Under the pieces are notes generated by a model. The model ran no database searches. It was given only the letters and a program-made list of their open reading frames with translations, and was not told the origin of the DNA. A stretch of DNA of 64,000 nt. Source: Chiloscyllium plagiosum. Its lineage: Eukaryota. The stretch covers positions 97,637,300 through 97,701,299 of the forward strand of contig NC_057718.1 in assembly GCF_004010195.1 (NCBI RefSeq), written 5' to 3'. The position numbers were made by a program, and so were the translations under genes. This document shows positions 2,061 to 54,178 of the stretch, piece after piece (position 1 is the stretch's first letter; the number at the start of each line of letters is the position of its first letter).

Positions 2061-2720
2061 TGCATTCAGAATTAATCCCTGAAACAACATTAAAACAGAC
2101 AATCACTGAAAAGCACATTGCTAAAGTTGCTCATTTTGTACTCATCAGAACCAGTGCGAGAATGCCAAGTTACATAGAACATAGAAAAGTACAGCACAGA
2201 ACAGGCCCTTTGGCCCACAATGTTGTGCCGAGATTTAATCCTAATATAAAATATAGTAACAACCTACGCACCCCTCAACTCACTGCTATCCATGTGAATG
2301 TCCAGCAGTCGCTTAAGTGTCCCCAATGACTCTGCTTACGAGCAATCACAACCATTTATGCAAAAGGAGAAAACGATACTGATTGGTTCATAAGTCAATT
2401 CTGATTGGATGAGGTGCTCTAGGCTCCACCCTCCATTCCCAAGCTCCGGGGTAATTTCAGAAAAGCACAAGCCTTGAGTATATTCCTTTTGTTTGCAGAG
2501 AACTGGTCCCAGTGGATGAATATCACTTGGAGGAAATTCAAACAAACTGTATTATGAGCTTGTGTGATTGTTCAGGCAGCCCAGACAGCAGCCTTTCTCT
2601 TCTGCAGTATAAATTGTTATGATCATTTCCAATGTAACATTCTGAAGTTTGCAAAGTGCAAAGTGAAAAACTTTAAAATGTGTTTTGGTTTTCAGCAATA
2701 CGAAAACAGGCTACCATTTC

Positions 2721-3298
2721 TGAAATAACTCAACAGAGGCCGGTATCCCATCCCCAAGTCACCCTTTATTTACATGTGCGCAATACAGTCAGTTGTGCTC
2801 TAACGCATGGTTCCATTCTCATACAATCCCGTGTAATGAGAAAATTGTGTAATAGCAGCACCACTTAAACTAATGGGGCCGGAATTGTGTTATAACCAAT
2901 GTACATTTTGAAAGTTCACACTATGGAAACAATGTCCCCAATTTGTCAATCGGGTTATAGCGAAACGCACGTTATAGCTGAACGACCTGTACTTGACACT
3001 GATCCAGTTTCCTCAGAGCCAGCTCTCAGAGTGAACGGAACCCCTGAGACTCCTTGTTGTCTTTTAAATATTTTTTCTCTCTTTTTTTAAGAGGTCAGTT
3101 CCATCCCTAACACAAAATGGAGAGTCCTTCACCACTGATCCAGTTCCCTCAGAGCCAGTTCTCAGAGTGAACAGAAGCTCTGAGACTCCTGTTTCTATCT
3201 GTCAGCCAGAGCTCCCGGCTTGGATCAGGTTAACAGCCCCAATCAGTGAACTCATTCTCTATGAGGTCCACCTGGCTGACCTTCTTGCAATCACTACA
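2721..3298 (-). mobile_element. Gypsy solo LTR (same family as 14455), interrupted by a MITE and partly duplicated
   Basis: Reverse complement begins TGTAGTGATTG and ends GAGTTATTTCA, matching the LTRs at 14455 and 19381. Confidence 0.85.
2786..2989. mobile_element. Tc1/mariner-pogo-type MITE
   Basis: TA on both sides (2784-2785, 2990-2991). Imperfect TIRs: CAGTCAGTTGTGCTCTAACG versus reverse-complemented end CAGGTCGTTCAGCTATAACG. Removing it restores the LTR. Confidence 0.75.
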
Positions 3299-9903: not shown

Positions 9904-10120
9904 GTGCAGGGGGAGGGGGGGGTGGGGTTGTTGTGGTCCAGCCAATAGTTTCCTCCCTCAGAGCGAGAAGATGCAAATTAAAGTCCCGTAGTAGTGATTG
10001 TAATGAGGTCAGTGCAGGGGGAGGGGGGGGGGGGGTTGTTGTGGTCCAGCCAATAGTTTCCTTCCTCAGAGCGAGAAGATGCAAATTAAAGTCCCGTAGT
10101 AGTGATTGTAATGAGGTCAG
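9904..10120. repeat. tandem duplication, 2 x ~108 bp
   Basis: Unit GTGCAGGGGGAGGG...GTAATGAGGTCAG starts at 9904 and 10012; the copies are nearly identical. Confidence 0.9.
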
Positions 10121-10327
10121 ACGGGTGGACCACATAGAATATGAGTTCCCTGATTGGGGCTGTTAATCTGGTCCAATGAGGGAGCCCTGGCTAACAAATA
10201 TAAACTGGAATGACAAAGGTTCTGTTCACTGTGAGAGCTGGCTCTGAGGGAGCTGGATCAGTGTCAAGGCCTCTCCATGTGTAAGGTGACATGATGACGG
10301 GATACCGGCCTCTGTCGAGTTATTTAA
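10097..10327 (+). mobile_element. Gypsy solo LTR
   Basis: TAGTGATTGTAATGAGGTCAG...ATAGAATATGAGTTCCCTGATTGGGGCTG...GAGTTATTTAA, matching 14455 and 19381. Confidence 0.85.
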
Positions 10328-12738: not shown

Positions 12739-13071
<333 letters not shown>

Positions 13072-13652: not shown

Positions 13653-14290
13653 TGTGTAAAGAAGGCAAATGATATGTTGGCCTTCATTGTGAGAGGTTTC
13701 ATGGACAGGAGCAGGGATGTGTTGTCGCAGTTAGACAGGGTCTTGGTGAGGCCACCCCGAGAATATGGTGTGTAGTTTTGGTCTCCTTTTCTGAGGAAGA
13801 ATACTCTTGCTCTCGAGGGAGTGAAGGTTTACCAGGCTGGTTCCAGGGACTGACGTATGAGGAGAGATTGACTAGGTTAGGATTGTTTTCTCTGGAGTTC
13901 AGATGAATTGAGAAGGGGGTGGTGGGGGGAGGCGTGGATCTCATACAGATAGGGTAGATGCAGGAAGGTGTTCCCATGGCAGGTACGTACAGAACCGGAG
14001 TCACAGTCTGAGGGTTCGGGGTGGACCATTTCGGACTGAGATGAGGAGACATTTCTTCACCCAAAGAGTGGTGAGCCTGTGGAATTCATTACCACAGGAA
14101 GTAGTTGATAACCAAAACATTGAATGTATTCAAAAGGCAGCTACAATGGGAGCAAATGGGATCAAAGGTTATGGGGAGAAAGCAGGATTAGGCTGTTGAG
14201 TTGGATGATCGGCCATGAATATAATGAATGCCAGAGCAGGCTTGAAGGGCTGAATGGCCTCTTCCTGCTCCTATCTTCTCTGTTTCTATC
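13653..14290 (+). mobile_element. CR1 3' fragment
   Basis: Degenerate KKAN.MLAFI...; ATTTCTTCACCCAAAGAGTGGTGAGCCTGTGGAATTCA and the 3' UTR. Confidence 0.8.
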
Positions 14291-15930
14291 TTCTAAACAA
14301 ACAGAATTTGTTGGCAAAATTCAGCAGGTCTGGCAGCATCTCTAGAGAGAAAGCAGACTTAACATTTCAAGTCCTAGTAACCCTACTTCAGAACTGATAC
14401 TAGCTAGAAAAACGTCACATATATGCTGAAGACAAGGAAGTGGGCTGTGAGGGGTGCAATGATTGTGATGAGTTCAGCAGGTTGACCTCATAGAATATGA
14501 GTTCCCTGATGAGGGCTTTTAATCTGGCCCAATCAGGGAGCCCCAGCTGACAGATTAAAAACAGGAATTTCAGACATTCTGACACTCTGAGAGCAGACTC
14601 TGAGGGAGCTGAATTCGTGTCAAGGACTCACCGTGTGTAAATAAAGGGTGACGGGATACCTTGTGGAGTTATTTCAGTGACGATGAGAGTAAAGCATGTT
14701 CCTGAAGAAACTCACTCACAACAATCATCTTTGAGTTGGGGTAAACATTTCCAGCATCATGCCATTGTTTGGGAATTTTGACTTGTTAAAACCTGGCGTC
14801 AAAGTTTGGGCCCAGATTGTGGAAGAATGCGTTATTATTTTCTGAGCAAATGACATTGGGGCTGTTGAGAAACAGTGAGTAATTCTCCTGACTGCTTGTG
14901 GACCCACAGCTTTTTTGGCTATTAGGAGCCAAACTTTCCCTGAGGCACCAGATACCAAAGCCTTTCAAGAGTTGACCGACTTAATGAAGAATATTACAAA
15001 CCAAAGCCTGCTCTAATTTTGAGATGCTATCGGTTTTACTCAGCAATTTGTGGACCGGGGACTCCACATCAAAATTTTTGACTCGGTTAAGATGTCTGGC
15101 AGAGGCATGTGGTTTTGATTTAACCCTGAGCAGAATGCTTAGAGACCATTTGGTATGTGGGATTAAAGATGTAACCCTGCCAAAGCTCCTAGCAGCTGAA
15201 ACCCAACTGGATTTCAAATAGATACTACAACTGGCTTTGTCACTGGAAAATCGACAAATGGAGTAAATGATTGCAGGCTGTTCCGATGGAAATGGACACC
15301 TTTGCCCATCCAGTTGAGCTTGGGGATCACCACTTGAGTGAAGGCAATGTCATAGCCACACTCAGGACATATCCTGAACAGAGGGACTCTCGGTTCGCCA
15401 GCAAAACCCCAAGACAAAGCCACGCCTCGGCCAAACAGTTAATATTTTCTTCTGGACTCGGGCCAGCAAGCCATTGTAGTTGCCAGTATACTGACTCAAG
15501 GCTGCAAAAGAGTCCCATTAGGCCCGAATTGTGTAAGAGAATTCATAGGCCAGTATCCAGGAGGGTCCGCACCCTGGAAAGTCCACCCACAACTGGTTCG
15601 GGACAGTTACATAGCTTAACAACATCAGTATCAGATCCAATCAAAATAAATGTCTGGTTAAATGGTCACCTGGTTCCAATGGAGGTCAATACCCACGTGG
15701 CCATTTCAGTGATCGCAGAACCACTCTTTCATAATATTCACCCTGGACTCCAACCCTTATATTTCTACAAGACCTCGGCTAGACTGAGAACCTATACCGA
15801 GGAACCTTTACAGATTAAGGTTCAACTTTGGTTCTGTTCTCTTACGAGAAGCAGCTGGTTCAGTTCCCACTGATTGTAGTAAAAGGCTCGGGTCCAAGCT
15901 TGATGGGGCAAAATTGGTTGAGAGAGATTC

Positions 15931-16285
15931 ATAGAATCTCTACAGTATGGAAACAGGCCCTTCGGCCCAACAAGTCCACACTGACCCTCCAGAGAGTAAC
16001 TTACCCAGACCCTTTCCCTTACCCTGTTATCTAGTACTTACCACTGACGAATGCACCTAACCTGCACATCCCTGAACACTATGGGCAATTTAACATGGCC
16101 TTTTCACCCTAACCTGCACATCTTTGGATTGTGGGACGAAACCAAAGCACCCAGAGGAAACCCACGCAGACACGGGGAGAATATGCAAACTCCACACAGA
16201 CTGGAGTCAAACCTGGGCTGGAGTCAAACCCGGGTCTCTGGCGCTGTGAAGCGGCAGTGCTGACCACTGAGCCACCGTGCTGCCC
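15931..16285 (-). mobile_element. HE1-type SINE nested in Gypsy pol
   Basis: Reverse-complement HE1 head, V-domain and tail; flanked by ATTCA on both sides. Confidence 0.85.
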
Positions 16286-17189
16286 CAATTCACTGAGATT
16301 GGCTCAACATTTTTCGATTAGAAAATGGCTGCCTGAGTGAACTCCTAATTAAATACCTGGACGCTTTACAGGAGAGTCCAGGAACTATCAAAGGAGCCAA
16401 GGCCACCTTGCATGTGGACAAGGGTGTTTCTGCAAGGCTTGCACATGCCATTCACTTTATGGGAAAAAGCAGAGGCAGAAATCAGGAGGCTGGGAAGCAA
16501 AGCAGTGATCAAACCAGTCGAGCTTGTGGAATGGGCAGCACTGGTCAGAGCAATTGTAAAGCCCGACAGATCGGTTCACCTTTGTGGGATTTCAAACAAA
16601 TGGTAAACCACTTCTTGCAGCTAGATAAATACACAGTCCCTCACATGGAGGATTAAAAATCAAACCTGGCAGGGGGGCTGTCCTTCACGAAACTGGAGAT
16701 GAGCCATGTGTACCTGCAATAGCAGTCAGATGAAGATTCCTAGATGTTACAATTAATACCCGTGAAGGTTTGTACCAGTATACAAGACGGCCATTTGGGG
16801 TATCATCAGCCTGTGTAACTTTTCAGCGGAGAACATTTTACAAGGTCTACCCCAGGCCGCCATTTTTTTAGATGACATGCTAATAACAGGGAAGACCAAT
16901 AAGGAGCACTTCGAAAACTTGGACAATGTCCTTAGATGTTTCTCCCAGGTGGACATGCGCCTTAGAGGGGAAAAACGTGTTCCAGGCTCCCCAAGTGACT
17001 TACTTAGGCTACAGAGTCAACCAGACTGTGTTACACCTGGAAGGTAAAGTGAGGGTGGTCAAAGGTGCCCAGGCTCCTACATCTGTACCAGAGCTTAGGC
17101 CTTTCCTTGAGTTGGTGAATGATTACAGAAAGTTCATACATACATTCTGGGACCTCTGCATCAACTCCTACAAAATGGTACATCTTTGG

Positions 17190-17496
17190 GCTGGTACGGT
17201 TCCTCAGTGGTCAGCACTGCTGCCTCACAGCACCAGGGACATAGTTTTGATCCCTGCCTCGGGTGGAAGAATTGTCTGTGTCGAGTTTGCACGTTCTCTC
17301 CATGGGTGGGTTTCTTCCCACAATCCAAAGATGTGCAGGTTAGGGTGAATTGACCATGCTAAATTGCCCATAAGTGATAGTCAGAGGTAAATATAGGGTA
17401 GGGGAATGGGTCTGGGTGGGTTACTCTTTGGAGGGTCAGTGTGGACATGTTGGGTTGAAGGGCCTGTTTCCATACTGTAGGGAATCTAATCTAATC
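17190..17496 (+). mobile_element. HE1-type SINE nested in Gypsy pol
   Basis: HE1 head and AATCT tail. Confidence 0.85.
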
Positions 17497-19497
17497 TTCG
17501 AAATGATCATGCAGCCAAGCTATAGTTTTCAGGGAAGTGAAGATACAACTATCATCCTCGCAGGTATTGGCACACTATAATCCTGAGCAAGATCTGGTAT
17601 TGACATGCAGCCTTGGGGTGGTATTAGCTCAGAGGAGGTCGAATGGAGAGGAACGCCCAACAGCATATGCACCTAGGATGCTGGCTAATGCACCCAGATA
17701 GAGAAAGAAGGTTTGGTGGTCATATTTGCAGACAGGAAGTTCCACCAATATCCTTATGGACTTAAATTTGTAACAGTAACAGGCCACAAACCCCGGCGAT
17801 GTCTACTTTCAGATGACAAGGCAATGCTGCCCATAGCTTCAGGCCAATTCAGCGGTGGGCTGTAATACTGAGTGTGTCCGGGAGGTTCAGTAGAAAATGT
17901 AGATGCATTGAGCCGCCTCCCACTGGTGATACCACCATTGGAAGAGTTCGTAATGGTTTTAAATTTTCTGGACACGCTTCCAGTCACAGCTGACTACATC
18001 AGACTTTGAACACAGAAAGACCTGCTCCTGGTAAAACTGGAACAGTAGGTGGTGATGGGCAAATCCAAAGGGCGGTCACAACCAGAATTGGATCCTTTTT
18101 GGACCCGGAGAGACCAGATCACCATCGATGATGGCGTATTATTACAGGGAGCAAGAGGGATGGTCCCGAGCAAAGGGTCACCTCCACAGGGATATCCAGG
18201 GGTTTTCATAATGAAGATGTTGGCAACAAATTATGTCTGGTGGTCAGGATCAGATGCCAACACAGCTTCCTTGGTGGGGCAGTGCCCAGAGTGCCGACAA
18301 GGACAAGAATTACTGCCAGCATCTCCCCCATGTTCGTGGGAAAGGCTGGGTAAACCCTGGACTCAGAAACACATCGCCTATGCCAGTCCTTTCATGGGCT
18401 CAGTGTTCTTAGTCATTGGCCGCCCAGTCAAAGCAGCTGGACATGCAGAGAGTTCATTCATCAAACACGGGATGATGATCAAAAGACCATCTGTGTCTTT
18501 TGCAATACATGGACTCCCATTAAGGATGATCACAGATAACGGGCCATTGTTTACATGCAGGGAATTTGAGTCTTTCTGAAAGTGACTTGGGATATAACGT
18601 TTAAGGACAGCTCCACTCCATTCATCATCCAATGGCCTGGTAGAAAGAGCAGTCCAAACTTTGAAGGCAGGTTTAAAGAAACAGCCTGCAGTTTCACTAG
18701 ATACCAAACTGTCCCAATTCCTATTCGATTATCCGGCCACCCCCTCATGGAGCCACAGAGATTGCTCCAGCAGAGTTGCTAATAGGGAGAAGACTCTGAA
18801 CCTGGTTAATTCGGATCTTCCCAGAACTCGGGGGGACGGTGGGGGGGGGCTGAAATGGCATCAGGAATGCCAGTGCCGGCCACCAAATTTCGCCAAGTAA
18901 AAGAGACGGCTTACTTCAGGGAATGAAGTTTGTTGTAGGAATCATGAGAATGGCCTTGCATGGGTTAGAGGCATGGTCAACACAAGGTCAGGTCTAGTGC
19001 CATATTAAGGAGCGACGGTCCTCAACAAGGTCATGGACCATATGGAAGCGGCAAATCCGCAGACAGTGTGGGAGAAAAATGTGCCCGGCCCCTTCGGAAC
19101 AGTCACAAAGACTGTCAGAACCATGGGTTCCCTCTCTCTCAAGTGTTGAAGAGACCTCTGAATCTGAGGTGGACATAGCAGATCTCGCAGCATTGACACC
19201 TTTGGCATCGGAAGAAGAGAGTTTCTCCCGAGGTGTTCCTGGCGCAAGGGGTGAGCTCCCTTGCATTCGTTGCGCCTGTATCCACCGCAGATTCTGGAAC
19301 CTGACCCTGTGCTAAAACACCCCAGGAGGAGCTACAAGGAAAAGGACCAGCCTATGTCCTCGGACTCCAAGGGCGACAGATGTAGTGATTGTAACGAGAT
19401 CAGCCAGGTGGACCTCATAGAATATGGATTCCCTGATTGGGGCTGTTGACCTGGTCCAATCAGGGAGCCCCGGCTGACAGATAAAAACTGGAATGTC

Positions 19498-20200
19498 TCC
19501 AACTCTATTTGGATTTAGTCCCTACCCTCCCCCCCACTGTTTTGATCACACAGCACTGCCCTTTTGATGTGAAGGGCGCCGCAGGGAGTGGAGTGCATCA
19601 TTTCTCCCTCCAACTCTATTTGGATTTAGTCCCTACCCTCCCCCCCCACTGTTTTGATGACACAGCACTGCCCTTTTGATGTGAAGGGCAGTGTTTGTCA
19701 CTGGCCACCCAGGTGTTTTTCTGTCTTCCTGGTGGTGGAATTTGAATAAAGATTCGTGCACTTTGTGTCTTTCGCTGTGTCTCACACCTGCACACACACA
19801 CACCATGGGTGCTGGGGATAAAATAAGCACTACTGCACTTAGGTGGTAGTGTGGGGGTTAATATATATTAAAAAAAAGAGAAAAAAAAGAAAATAAACAG
19901 GAATTAAAAAAAACAGGTGTGCTTGCCCTTTGAGGTGAAGGGCAGTGTTTGTCACTGGCCACCTGGGTGTTTTCCTATCTTCCTGGTGGTGGAAATTGAA
20001 AAAAAAACTGGAATGTCACACCTGCACACATACAACATGGGTGCTGGGGGAAAAAATAAGCACTACCACAGTTAGGCGGTAGTGTGGGGGTTAAAAAAAA
20101 ACTGGAATGTCACACCTGCACACACACAACATGGGTGCTGGGGGAAAAAATAAGCACTACCACAGTTAGGTGGTAGTGTGGGGGTAAAACAACAAAAAAA
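19498..20200 (+). mobile_element. stack of Tx1-like non-LTR retrotransposon 3' ends inside the 3' LTR
   Basis: ORF2 end APQGVECIISPSNSIWI* (19576-19630), 3' UTR with AATAAA and poly(A). Five partial copies, most separated by repeats of the LTR target motif. Confidence 0.7.
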
Positions 20201-20342
20201 GAACAGGAGTGTCAAACATCCTGCTTACTGTGAGAGCTGGCACTGAGGGAGCTGGATCCACATCAACAACTCTCTACTTGTAAATAAAGGATGATTTGGT
20301 GACGGGATACCAGCCTCTCTGGAGTTATATCAGAATAGTAGG

Positions 20343-20921
20343 AAAAAAACCAGGAATGTCAGAGGTTCTGTTCAATCTGAGAGCTGGCTCCAAGGGAGCT
20401 GGATCAGTGTCAAGTGCTCTCCACATGAGCTGGTGACGGGATACTGGCCTCTGTGGAGTTATTTCAGGGTGTGCTCATTTTTTTAGGCAAACAGGAGCGT
20501 TCCTGCACCTGAATGTCAGACAATTCAAGTACTGAGTCTCATGAAGTAGAAAAGTTGCGGAAAGTCCAAGACCAGTGACCCGAACAGTGGGGTGCTGCTG
20601 TGAGGTCAGCAGCTATCCTCAGGTAAATAAGGAGAAGGTAAAACCACATGATGCGGGTCCTATACAATACTATCTGTGCATATGATAATGAGACCAGTGA
20701 CTGGGAAGGATTAATAGAAAGAAGGGGGTGTATTTTCTCAATGTGGGTGAAGGAGGACCATTTCTTCTCCGATTGTAATCGTAAAAAAGATGATCCCACA
20801 AACAGGAATGTCAGAGGTTCTGTTCAATCTGAGAGCTGGCTCCAAGGGAGCTGGACCAGTGTCAAGGCCACTCCATGTAAGTAAAGGGTGAAGGGACACC
20901 GGCCTCTGTGGAGTTATTTCA
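20343..20921 (+). mobile_element. two extra 3'-half LTR copies (20343-20466, 20798-20921) around a ~330-bp insert
   Basis: Both begin at CAGGAATGTCAGAGG and end GAGTTATTTCA. Confidence 0.8.
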
Positions 20922-21409
20922 AAGAGGGAGGGGTAGTGAGCCAGCAGGTGGAGATGGAAGCTCAGAGACAGATAATGACAGTTAGACAAAGAGATGGATG
21001 ATGGTGTGCCAGGGCGAAACAAGGTTTTCTAGAAGTTTTTTTTAAAATGGCTTTTCTGCTTTCTGTTGCTTTTGTTCTTTATCTCACTTTGCTAAATGCT
21101 GACACGTATTTTAGCTGACCTGGTATCCGTAAGGAACAGGCTTGGAGTCATTGGGAGCAGATCTGGGCACCACACCTCTATCAGGATTCATAAGCCTGGA
21201 AGGAAACACAGATTTCCCAAAGGGATACCTGGACACCAAGCAGTAAGCCAAGAGAATAAATGAAACAAATTAGTGTTATGTTCTCTGGAATATACCAAAG
21301 TAAAGGGCATTTATTTAAAGTTTTCAAGACATTAAGATCAACTGGAATTTAAAGTGGGAATTTTATTGGGAATTAATACAATGGGGTTACAACAGAAGGT
21401 ACGAGAGGA

Positions 21410-21510
21410 CTATTCCGAAGAAGGGTCTCTCGACCCGAAATGTTAACTGATTTCTCTCCTCAGATGCTGCCAGACCTGCTGAGCTTTTCCAGCAATTGCT
21501 GATTTTGTCA
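21410..21510 (+). mobile_element. Penelope-type pLTR fragment (third variant) with hammerhead-like core
   Basis: CCGAAGAAGGGTCTCTCGACCCGAAATGTT...CAGATGCTGCCAGACCTGCTGAG. Relatives at 24490-24570 (+) and 14300-14395, 50920-51000, 51975-52100, 62250-62370 (-). Confidence 0.6.
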
Positions 21511-50822: not shown

Positions 50823-51138
50823 TTGAGCTGAGTGAAACAAAGAGTCCTTAGGTTCATCTTTGTCTATCAGAGAAGGAGCAAGTTGTTGCTGGTGTTGAAG
50901 TCTGTACTGAAGACAACCAATGCTGGAGATCACAGTGGGTCAGGCAGCATCCATGGAGAGAGAGCAAGCTAAGGTTTCGAGTCGCGATGACTCTTCAGAG
51001 CATGCCAATTGAGGTATTCTGCATGTATGATACAGTCTCAAATATCGACAAACAGGCACAAAGAAAAATATTTAGAGATTTTTTTTACTTTGGTGTGAAA
51101 ATGTGGACATGACACGGTTTCTCTTTTTGAACTGACAG

Positions 51139-51319
51139 GCCTGAATCAGCGAGCCCGGAACATCCCAGTTCCAGCGTCGAGCAAGAGCTTTCTGCCCTTG
51201 ACGCAGAGATGACGCAGAAGTTAGCAGAGCTCAAAGAACAACAGCAGCAACAGCTGTTAAACCTGAGACAGGAGCAGTATTACAGTGAAAAATACCAGAA
51301 GCGGGAGCACGTTAAGCAG
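51139..51319 (+). CDS. PLCB1: PLCB1 internal coding exon (181 nt, distal CTD)
   Basis: tgacag|G...CAG|gtgttg. Encodes [60 protein letters not shown]. Phase 2/0. Confidence 0.95.
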
Positions 51320-51514
51320 GTGTTGCTCAGAGTTTTGTTTTACAGCATGTGTGTCACTGATCATCAATGCATTGTTTTGGTTGATTTTGCAGAATTCTTG
51401 TAGCACTGATTGAAGCCATTCAGCCCATTGTATCTGCACCCGCTCTCTGGACGAGCAATTCTCCTTCTGCCTTTCCCCTATCATCTCCCAGTAACACTTA
51501 ACACATCCTAATGA

Positions 51515-53517: not shown

Positions 53518-54178
53518 ATTTGGAGGTGCCGGTGTTGGACTGGGGTGTACAAAGTTAAAAATCACACAACACCAGGTTATAATCCAACAGGTTTAATTAG
53601 AAGCACCGGCTTTCGGAGCGCCGCTCCTTCATCAGGTGGTTGTGGAGGACACAATTGTAAGGCACAGAATTTATAGCAAAAGTTTACAGTGTGATGTAAC
53701 TGGAATTATACATTGAAAAATACCTTGATTGTCTGTTGAGTCTTTCATCTGTTTGAATACCATGATAGTTTCACTTCTTTCATGTGTAAATCACAAAGCT
53801 TTTTTAAAAGTTGGATTCTCAGGTTAACTGTAACAATTGGTGTTAGCTAGACAATATGTTGAAGGTGGAGAAAGTGAGGTCTGCAGATGCTGGAGATCAG
53901 AGCTGGAAATGTGTTGCTGGAAAAGCGCAGCAGGTCAGACAGCATCCAGGGAACAGGGGAATCGACGTTTCGGGCATAAGCCCTTCTTCAGGAATGGGGA
54001 AAGTTTGTTTTTATCTTAGCCTGCTGGACAAACTTTCCCCATTCCTGAAGAAGGGCTTATGCCCGAAACGTCGATTCCCCTGTTCCCTGGATGCTGCCTG
54101 ACCTGCTGCGCTTTTCCAGCAACACATTTCCAATATGTTGAAGGTGTTAGCCCCCTGTGTTCTCTGTGTGATTTTTAA
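53518..54178 (-). mobile_element. family B Penelope-type insertion (pLTR + 3' UTR + short inverted end), hosting a family A palindrome
   Basis: 13-bp TSD CTTTTCAGGTCTG (53505-53517, 54179-54191). Minus strand CACCTGATGAAGGAGCGGCGCTCCGAAAGCC; inverted TGTGTGATTTTTAAC at the far end. Confidence 0.82.
53868..54130. mobile_element. young palindromic mini-element (family A) with hammerhead cores on both strands
   Basis: 16-bp TSD CAATATGTTGAAGGTG. ~104-bp arms with one mismatch and a 19-nt spacer. CTGAAGA...GAAACGTC at 54045-54072 (+) and 53991-53964 (-). Confidence 0.92.

Follow-up and report, generated by a model that had tools for sequence, protein, structure and literature searches.

Within a 64,000-nucleotide stretch of DNA (the window, i.e., the whole stretch that was analysed), the 3′ LTR of a decayed retrotransposon is interrupted by pieces of the 3′ end of another repeat, with A-runs and copies of a short LTR sequence, the target word, lying between them. 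The first-pass annotation read this array as a series of insertions by a LINE that regenerates its own target. The question raised by the locus is whether a LINE did return to one preferred LTR site, or whether chance insertion, local duplication or misassembly accounts for the arrangement.

The Gypsy-type host element

The interrupted element is a decayed LTR retrotransposon which extends from 14455 to about 20920 in the window. It has paired TG...CA LTRs and remnants of RT, RNase H and integrase in that order, and is thus a Gypsy-type element, with Pfam matches in four of its 30 frames, three of the four being under the curated cut-offs. Its parts, and the other LTR copies outside it, are listed below.

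14455 to 14676, plus strand: 5′ LTR of the Gypsy-type element, with TG...CA ends
14677 to 19380, plus strand: decayed internal region, carrying two SINE inserts and, arranged as in Gypsy, remnants of RT, RNase H and an integrase zinc finger
16766 to 17044: RVT_1, Pfam E 2e-4, below the curated cut-off
17507 to 17698: RT_RNaseH_2, Pfam E 2e-8, the sole match above the curated cut-off
17689 to 17862: RT_RNaseH, Pfam E 4e-4, below the curated cut-off
18049 to 18576: Integrase_H2C2, Pfam E 2e-3, below the curated cut-off
19381 to 19497, plus strand: left half of the 3′ LTR, with CCAAT at 19455 and the target word behind a TATA-like GATAAAAA at 19480
10098 to 10327, plus strand: solo LTR with the site intact (AAACTGGAATGAC), the empty-site control
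2720 to 3298, minus strand: a second LTR of this family, also split at the target site

The two SINE inserts are copies of an abundant SINE in opposite orientations (15929-16289 and about 17190-17499), and the SINEs of the window resemble those of sharks and rays. The LTR family has four copies in the window, i.e., the 5′ LTR, the broken 3′ LTR, the solo LTR and the minus-strand LTR at 3298-2720. The left half of the 3′ LTR is 85.3% identical to that of the 5′ LTR, and the LTR halves of the Gypsy-type element are just 80-85% identical; halves across the family are 74-90% identical, which makes it an old family. In run X1 of the public data described below, 1126 contigs have unrelated flanks preceding the LTR start at 19381, and at the LTR ends unrelated flanks follow in 203 contigs after 20332, in 498 after 20466 and in 433 after 20467. 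A tandem duplication of ~108 bases (9991-10120) takes in 22 bases at the start of the solo LTR.

The CCAAT and TATA-like boxes of the left half would presumably serve as promoter elements, and their position upstream of the insertion site, with an AATAAA downstream, suggests a site immediately upstream of the transcription start. The array is likely situated, in sense orientation, inside an intron of a gene encoding phospholipase C beta. Elsewhere in the window we observed a weak Pfam match to the PLC-beta C-terminal domain at 51131-51400 (E 1.6e-5, below cut-off), a stretch at about 12780-12892 that by eye is exon-like, and a near-perfect inverted repeat at 53904-54132 (105-base arms, 99% complementary, 19 bases apart), which could be a recent inverted duplication or a feature of the assembly.

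The inserted pieces and the target word

The 3′ LTR was said to break after 19497, and this holds: its left half (19381-19497) ends with AAAAACTGGAATGTC. The sequence that follows is resolved into inserted pieces (P), target copies (T) and LTR right halves (RH).

19483 to 19497, plus strand: T1, the upstream target copy AAAAACTGGAATGTC, all 15 letters of which recur at 20003-20017 and 20097-20111
19498 to 19577, plus strand: P1, an untailed duplicate of 19609-19689 (79 of 80 identical, one gap)
19574 to 19894, plus strand: P2, with the last 18 codons of an ORF, its stop at 19627-19629, a 3′ UTR to about 19862 and a decayed A-rich tail
19895 to 19922, plus strand: partial word AAACAGGAATT, A8, partial word AAACAGGTGTGC
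19924 to 20017, plus strand: P3, the middle of the 3′ UTR up to an internal AATAAA, then A9 and T3; 92.0% identical to P2
20018 to 20111, plus strand: P4, the terminal 75 bases, then A9 and T4; 90.7% identical to P2 and 96.0% to P5
20112 to 20213, plus strand: P5, the terminal 75 bases, then an interrupted A-tail and T5 (GAACAGGAGTGTC); 91.9% identical to P2
20201 to 20349, plus strand: RH1, an entire LTR right half to the CA at 20332, then 10 bases and A7
20348 to 20466, plus strand: RH2, a second right half, beginning at the target word
20467 to 20799, no strand assigned: spacer of 333 bases, at single-copy depth
20800 to 20920, plus strand: RH3, a third right half that opens precisely with the target word; 90.5% identical to RH2

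Read from left to right, the array runs T1, P1, P2, its tail, a partial word, A8, a partial word, P3, A9, T3, P4, A9 and T4, and continues with P5, its tail, T5, RH1, 10 bases, A7, a word, RH2, the 333 bases, a word and RH3. All five pieces are in the sense orientation and come from one expressed, poly(A)-tailed repeat, further copies of whose 3′ end were found nowhere else in the 64 kb window. Thus, the first-pass description of five tailed pieces of one 3′ end is right about the number, orientation and common source of the pieces but not about the tails, since P1 is untailed and P3 ends at the internal AATAAA.

The reported end of an ORF is confirmed, P2 reading APQGVECIISPSNSIWI* in frame 0, and the 3′ UTR behind it measures ~230 bases. 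The Trp near the ORF end is peculiar to P2; nearly all contig and read depth has T at 19622, giving Leu. All array copies are 5′-truncated, and the ORF remnant amounts to 18 codons only. In RNA, 141 reads prolong the frame upstream of 19574, where it is by eye open, with ...LFRERW preceding APQG, and we take this extension and the C-terminal peptide to resemble the end of a Tx1 ORF2. The ORF stop, the UTR and the A-tails, present in DNA and RNA, are shared with L1 and are non-diagnostic for Tx1. Pfam gave no other LINE ORF2 protein among 91 of the 128 long frames of the window, and a search with the 3′-end pattern gave no relatives in viral contigs or metagenomes. Three metagenome matches to the C-terminal codon pattern were dismissed as chance, none of them continuing in the sequence of the element. 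An Rfam search of 14000-21500 returned mir-TAR at E 0.61, again a chance match, and neither an RNA-gene head nor an RNA-gene target.

The five pieces do not represent five independent insertions, as was first counted. P1 runs into the start of P2 through a 4-base GGGC overlap, and the two have three family-rare substitutions in common (19511/19622 and 19533-4/19645-6). P1 would be either part of the same event as P2, by template jump or donor duplication, or a later local copy. In both DNA and RNA runs, joints skip ~113-117 bases within 19558-19676, which is the ordinary single-copy 3′ UTR seen across the P1/P2 duplicate and not splicing. P3 has the family letter at three positions where P2 is off-family, and is therefore a separate copy rather than a late copy of P2. 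P4 and P5 start at an identical 5′ end, and slippage between A-runs may have copied P5 to give P4. However, a predicted stem-loop (z of −3.3 for P2, −1.9 for P4 and −2.3 for P5) has its foot at this shared 5′ end, which could therefore recur independently. With P2, P3 and P4/P5 mutually 8-9% apart, the pieces, judged by their letters, comprise a minimum of three distinct copies at the site. The short interval 19895-19922 is possibly an A-only insertion between two decayed copies of the target.

A target-site duplication is present: T1, T3 and T4 are identical over 15 letters, each ending in TGTC. The motif had been reported after every tail, which is accurate for the 15-letter T3 and T4 and for the one-mismatch word at 20201 (another such word lies at 20348), whereas only partial words, failing the one-mismatch test, stand at 19895 (AAACAGGAATT) and 19911 (AAACAGGTGTGC). 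The words are not uniform, with CTGG at T1, T3 and T4 and CAGG at the others. The 5′ LTR has an uninterrupted word, AAACAGGAATTTC, at 14559-14571, and in each unsplit LTR the TGTC that ends the word is altered by a substitution, an observation that with four copies is anecdotal. With one mismatch or fewer, AAACWGGARTGTC has nine occurrences across the window where 0.63 would be expected, a number that none of 100 shuffles reaches; as the pattern was derived from the same sites, this excess describes repetition and not targeting. All nine occurrences fall within the one LTR family, three in other LTR copies and the rest in the 3′ LTR and array (19485, 20005, 20099, 20201, 20348 and 20800). A target-like stretch, AAACAGGAG...GAATGTCAGA, lies at 20489-20520 in the single-copy spacer, 22 bases past RH2, and may be a decayed word pair or chance.

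Beyond the pieces, the LTR does not simply resume, as had been stated, but is present as three right halves (20201-20332, 20348-20466 and 20800-20920). RH1 is 76.6-81.1% identical to five other right halves and 74.4% to the sixth, and was likely brought in by 3′ read-through from another LTR. RH2 and RH3 have four minority bases found in these two only; they look like a local duplication outside the serial-insertion model, and RH3 and the spacer remain outside the mechanism proposed below. The spacer is matched by one contig each in runs X1 and X6 (three differences in about 390) and by two contigs in X14; its presence under both species labels implies that the flank made up of RH2, spacer and RH3 predates the split between the labels. 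The 5′ flank of the element, AGGGG, matches GGGTG (after RH2) and AAGAG (after RH3) at three of five positions each, and GAATA, after RH1, does not fit a flanking duplication of the Gypsy element, for which 4-6 bases are expected.

Two of the four LTR copies in the window are split at the target site. The second of these, on the minus strand at 3298-2720, consists of a left half, GGAGTCTCAG (3194-3182), a partial right half ending about 14 bases before the LTR end, an A-rich tail of 35 bases (3088-3054), GGAGTCTCAG again and a full right half; no LINE sequence was found within it. Its two right halves have in common three minority bases found in no other copy. The minority-base test is a weak one, as chance pairs also share two or three (three for the 5′ LTR and RH1, two for the solo LTR and RH1), and it hints that this pair, and likewise RH2 and RH3, may each stem from one copy. 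The arrangement fits a read-through RNA (LINE, tail, word, right half, poly(A)) that pairing with the target cut short at the word. It also fits an A-only insertion accompanied by a long duplication, and a nick at the same site is needed either way. The full right half also contains a 204-base insert (2786-2989) with TA on both sides and imperfect inverted ends, presumably a MITE of the Tc1/mariner type.

The probable site preference and its alternatives

Four of 24 public runs were compared with 19200-21100 at 80% likeness, i.e., two DNA runs of the same species (X1 and X6), one run with a second species label (X14) and one RNA run (X21), joints being detectable only inside this interval. Among the best 15 of 1810 joints, three begin at a LINE tail, and each of them leads into the start of an LTR right half. 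Contigs with a tail-to-right-half junction number eight in X1, five in X6 and seven in X14, counts to be read with the provisos that joints below 95 likeness are often repeat-derived, that the short sides measure 26-43 letters and that they are tallies of junctions and not proportions of all copies. Among the best 12 of 614 entries with letters between the joined sides, X6 has an LTR left half joined to the 3′ UTR through CAGGAGTGT, and a tail joined to another LINE piece via a word-like spacer. These two forms are absent from the window and must therefore stem from a different locus or allele. Under both species labels the repeat is present in very many copies. The summed depth of the LINE 3′ end in X1 and X6 is several times that of the LTR, although summed depth is no copy number; if the ratio does reflect copies, there are many LINE copies elsewhere or the arrays are long.

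The RNA run shows a strand bias at 19712-19775 (763 vs. 21), corresponding to sense for a library of the usual type, and A-runs past the 3′ end in 74 and 106 reads. Just 34 of 2622 reads are at least 99% alike, suggesting that they derive mostly from other copies. RNA depth drops from 121 to 7 right after the P5 tail, so most transcripts there stop short of RH1.

We consider the best explanation, with a probability of about 0.72, to be a site-preferring LINE of the L1/Tx1 type which went through ~3 target-primed rounds at a 13-base LTR word, accompanied by local duplication. Site preference and serial insertion are argued for by the three copies 8-9% apart, by the split second LTR and by the same-site junctions in public contigs. 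The earlier proposal of serial insertion at the target is supported in part, its count of five being too high. Within the window all pieces sit at the LTR word, a figure of about three events at a locus that was picked for its cluster of insertions.

In the proposed mechanism, the A-run of GAT/AAAAAC would be where the endonuclease nicks the bottom strand and where the poly(A) of the RNA primes, and the top strand would be cut ~10 bases beyond this run. Every insertion would then duplicate the word and renew the target, the copies being heavily 5′-truncated as they insert. Some donor RNAs would be read-through transcripts from other occupied LTRs, which could explain why CAGG-type words and RH1 lie between CTGG-type words. 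One parsimonious order has P5 and RH1 arriving first, the left word then changing to CTGG, and P4 and finally the P1-P3 block being added; other orders would also be possible. An insertion upstream of the start site in a 3′ LTR is copied into both LTRs at replication. The 5′ LTR is empty, and the insertions therefore postdate the integration of the Gypsy element, provided that both LTRs, at 85% identity, belong to one element.

A bolder version of this mechanism, which we regard as unlikely, holds that the LINE uses the LTR as a transcription unit: it would land between the TATA-like box and the start site, be driven by the promoter, read through to the poly(A) signal of the LTR and recopy the right half, sometimes without any LINE sequence, as at 3298-2720. 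If true, the LINE would disable and remodel the promoters of an LTR family and would have been active in at least two elasmobranch species.

The site preference could also be only apparent. An unspecific L1-type LINE may have hit the LTR by chance, its A-tail then attracting more insertions, so that the array would be a hot spot formed in the absence of sequence targeting. A duplication of 15 bases is of the usual length for L1, and the LINE family is so abundant that some chance junctions at the LTR site are expected. The LTR also offers an unspecific L1-type enzyme an almost canonical TTTT/A site, with TTTTT/A on the bottom strand (19481-19487) against an L1 consensus of TTTT/AA (PMC1950540). 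However, the duplications at T1, T3 and T4 share their end base (TGTC), with those at 19911 and at one X6 junction within one base of it, and the second LTR is split at the same position despite the 234 TAAAA sites of the 64 kb window. The A-runs point the same way: of the 30 runs of at least seven A in the window, the word comes next in four of the seven inside the array and in none of the 23 outside, in a test that overlooks the tail of the second LTR at 3088, and the window has no further copy of the family. We therefore hold the hot spot to be improbable.

A similarly low probability attaches to the idea that a single insertion, followed by local tandem duplications and deletions or by co-copying with the LTR element, gave rise to all of the pieces and the extra right halves. 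Local duplication certainly accounts for part of the array. The rare letters common to P1 and P2 speak for it, as do the 96% identity and single 5′ end of P4 and P5, the succession of P3 and P4 in the element's own order, and the minority bases shared by RH2 and RH3 (four) and by the halves of the second LTR (three). As an account of the whole it meets the absence of P2's private letters from P3, the replacement of 39 bases between P3 and P4 by A9 and an exact target word, the 77% identity of RH1 and RH2, which is too low for a local copy, and the stem-loop foot at which the common 5′ end of P4 and P5 could arise independently; the empty 5′ LTR speaks against co-copying. Least probable is an assembly artefact. 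No contig spanning the array was found among the 24 longest of about 91,400, and at spacer positions 20679 and 20689 both same-species runs disagree with the window. However, the pieces, the P1/P2 pair excepted, are 4-9% apart, the spacer and 3′ flank have single-contig matches in two studies and also recur under the second species label, and the same type of junction is present in short-read contigs. Taken together, the array is a real and well-formed nest which most likely records a site-preferring LINE, and its events are fewer than first counted.

Relation to known site-specific elements

Mutsu targets 5S genes and Dewa targets tRNA arrays. Among the targets given by Kojima 2015 are Tx1D for Tx1, U2 for Keno and microsatellites for Kibi and Koshi, and its main text describes two crocodilian Tx1 families, Tx1-8_Crp and Tx1-4_AMi, which prefer LTR retrotransposons, a family being called target-specific when >20% of its copies are flanked by one sequence type (PMC4494074). 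As a kind, a LINE that prefers LTRs is therefore not undescribed. Homing to one site in another transposable element is a principle already in print for frog and crocodilian Tx1 elements, and the locus described here is a new example. In the literature covered, with most subscription papers and Repbase outside it, no account of this particular family, no published shark or ray case and no TATA-proximal LTR site was found. By analogy, the repeat is a Tx1-type candidate which would work like the target-specific Tx1 families.

The locus carries only short, old fragments. If the preference holds genome-wide, a defined target of 13-15 bases would join the short list known for APE-type LINEs, and such a target would help the study of changes in endonuclease specificity and of tools for site-directed insertion. 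With the site at the presumed LTR promoter, it becomes testable whether a LINE can gain expression from, or silence, another retrotransposon.

We note likenesses and differences to four published systems. The two crocodilian families prefer LTRs, as the LINE here probably does, whereas the host lineage differs; the LTR type and site are absent from the main text ('Gypsy' has 0 occurrences), so the likeness is one of LTR preference alone. SINEU-3 and Tx1-Mar in Mariner-N4_AMi also have a target inside an older transposon and a tandem arrangement read as sequential, and for tandem SINEU-3 copies, which sandwich a TSD, transcription from the flanking target was proposed (PMC4494074). In that case, however, the target is a DNA transposon, often entered in the opposite direction, whereas the array described here lies in an LTR and has every piece in sense orientation.

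Tx1L of Xenopus laevis, which inserts in Tx1D, is an APE-type LINE with one transposon site and with the specificity of its endonuclease established in vitro, where the enzyme nicks its target almost exclusively, in contrast to the promiscuous L1 endonuclease (PMC1950540). Its target is a non-autonomous piggyBac element, and the window holds no endonuclease to compare with it. Human L1 likewise has poly(A) tails, 5′ truncation, duplications of ~15 bases and a nick at a T-tract/A junction. It is also subject to 3′ transduction, and its A-tails attract nested insertions. However, human L1 is promiscuous, whereas the duplications here keep a fixed 3′ end at one LTR word.
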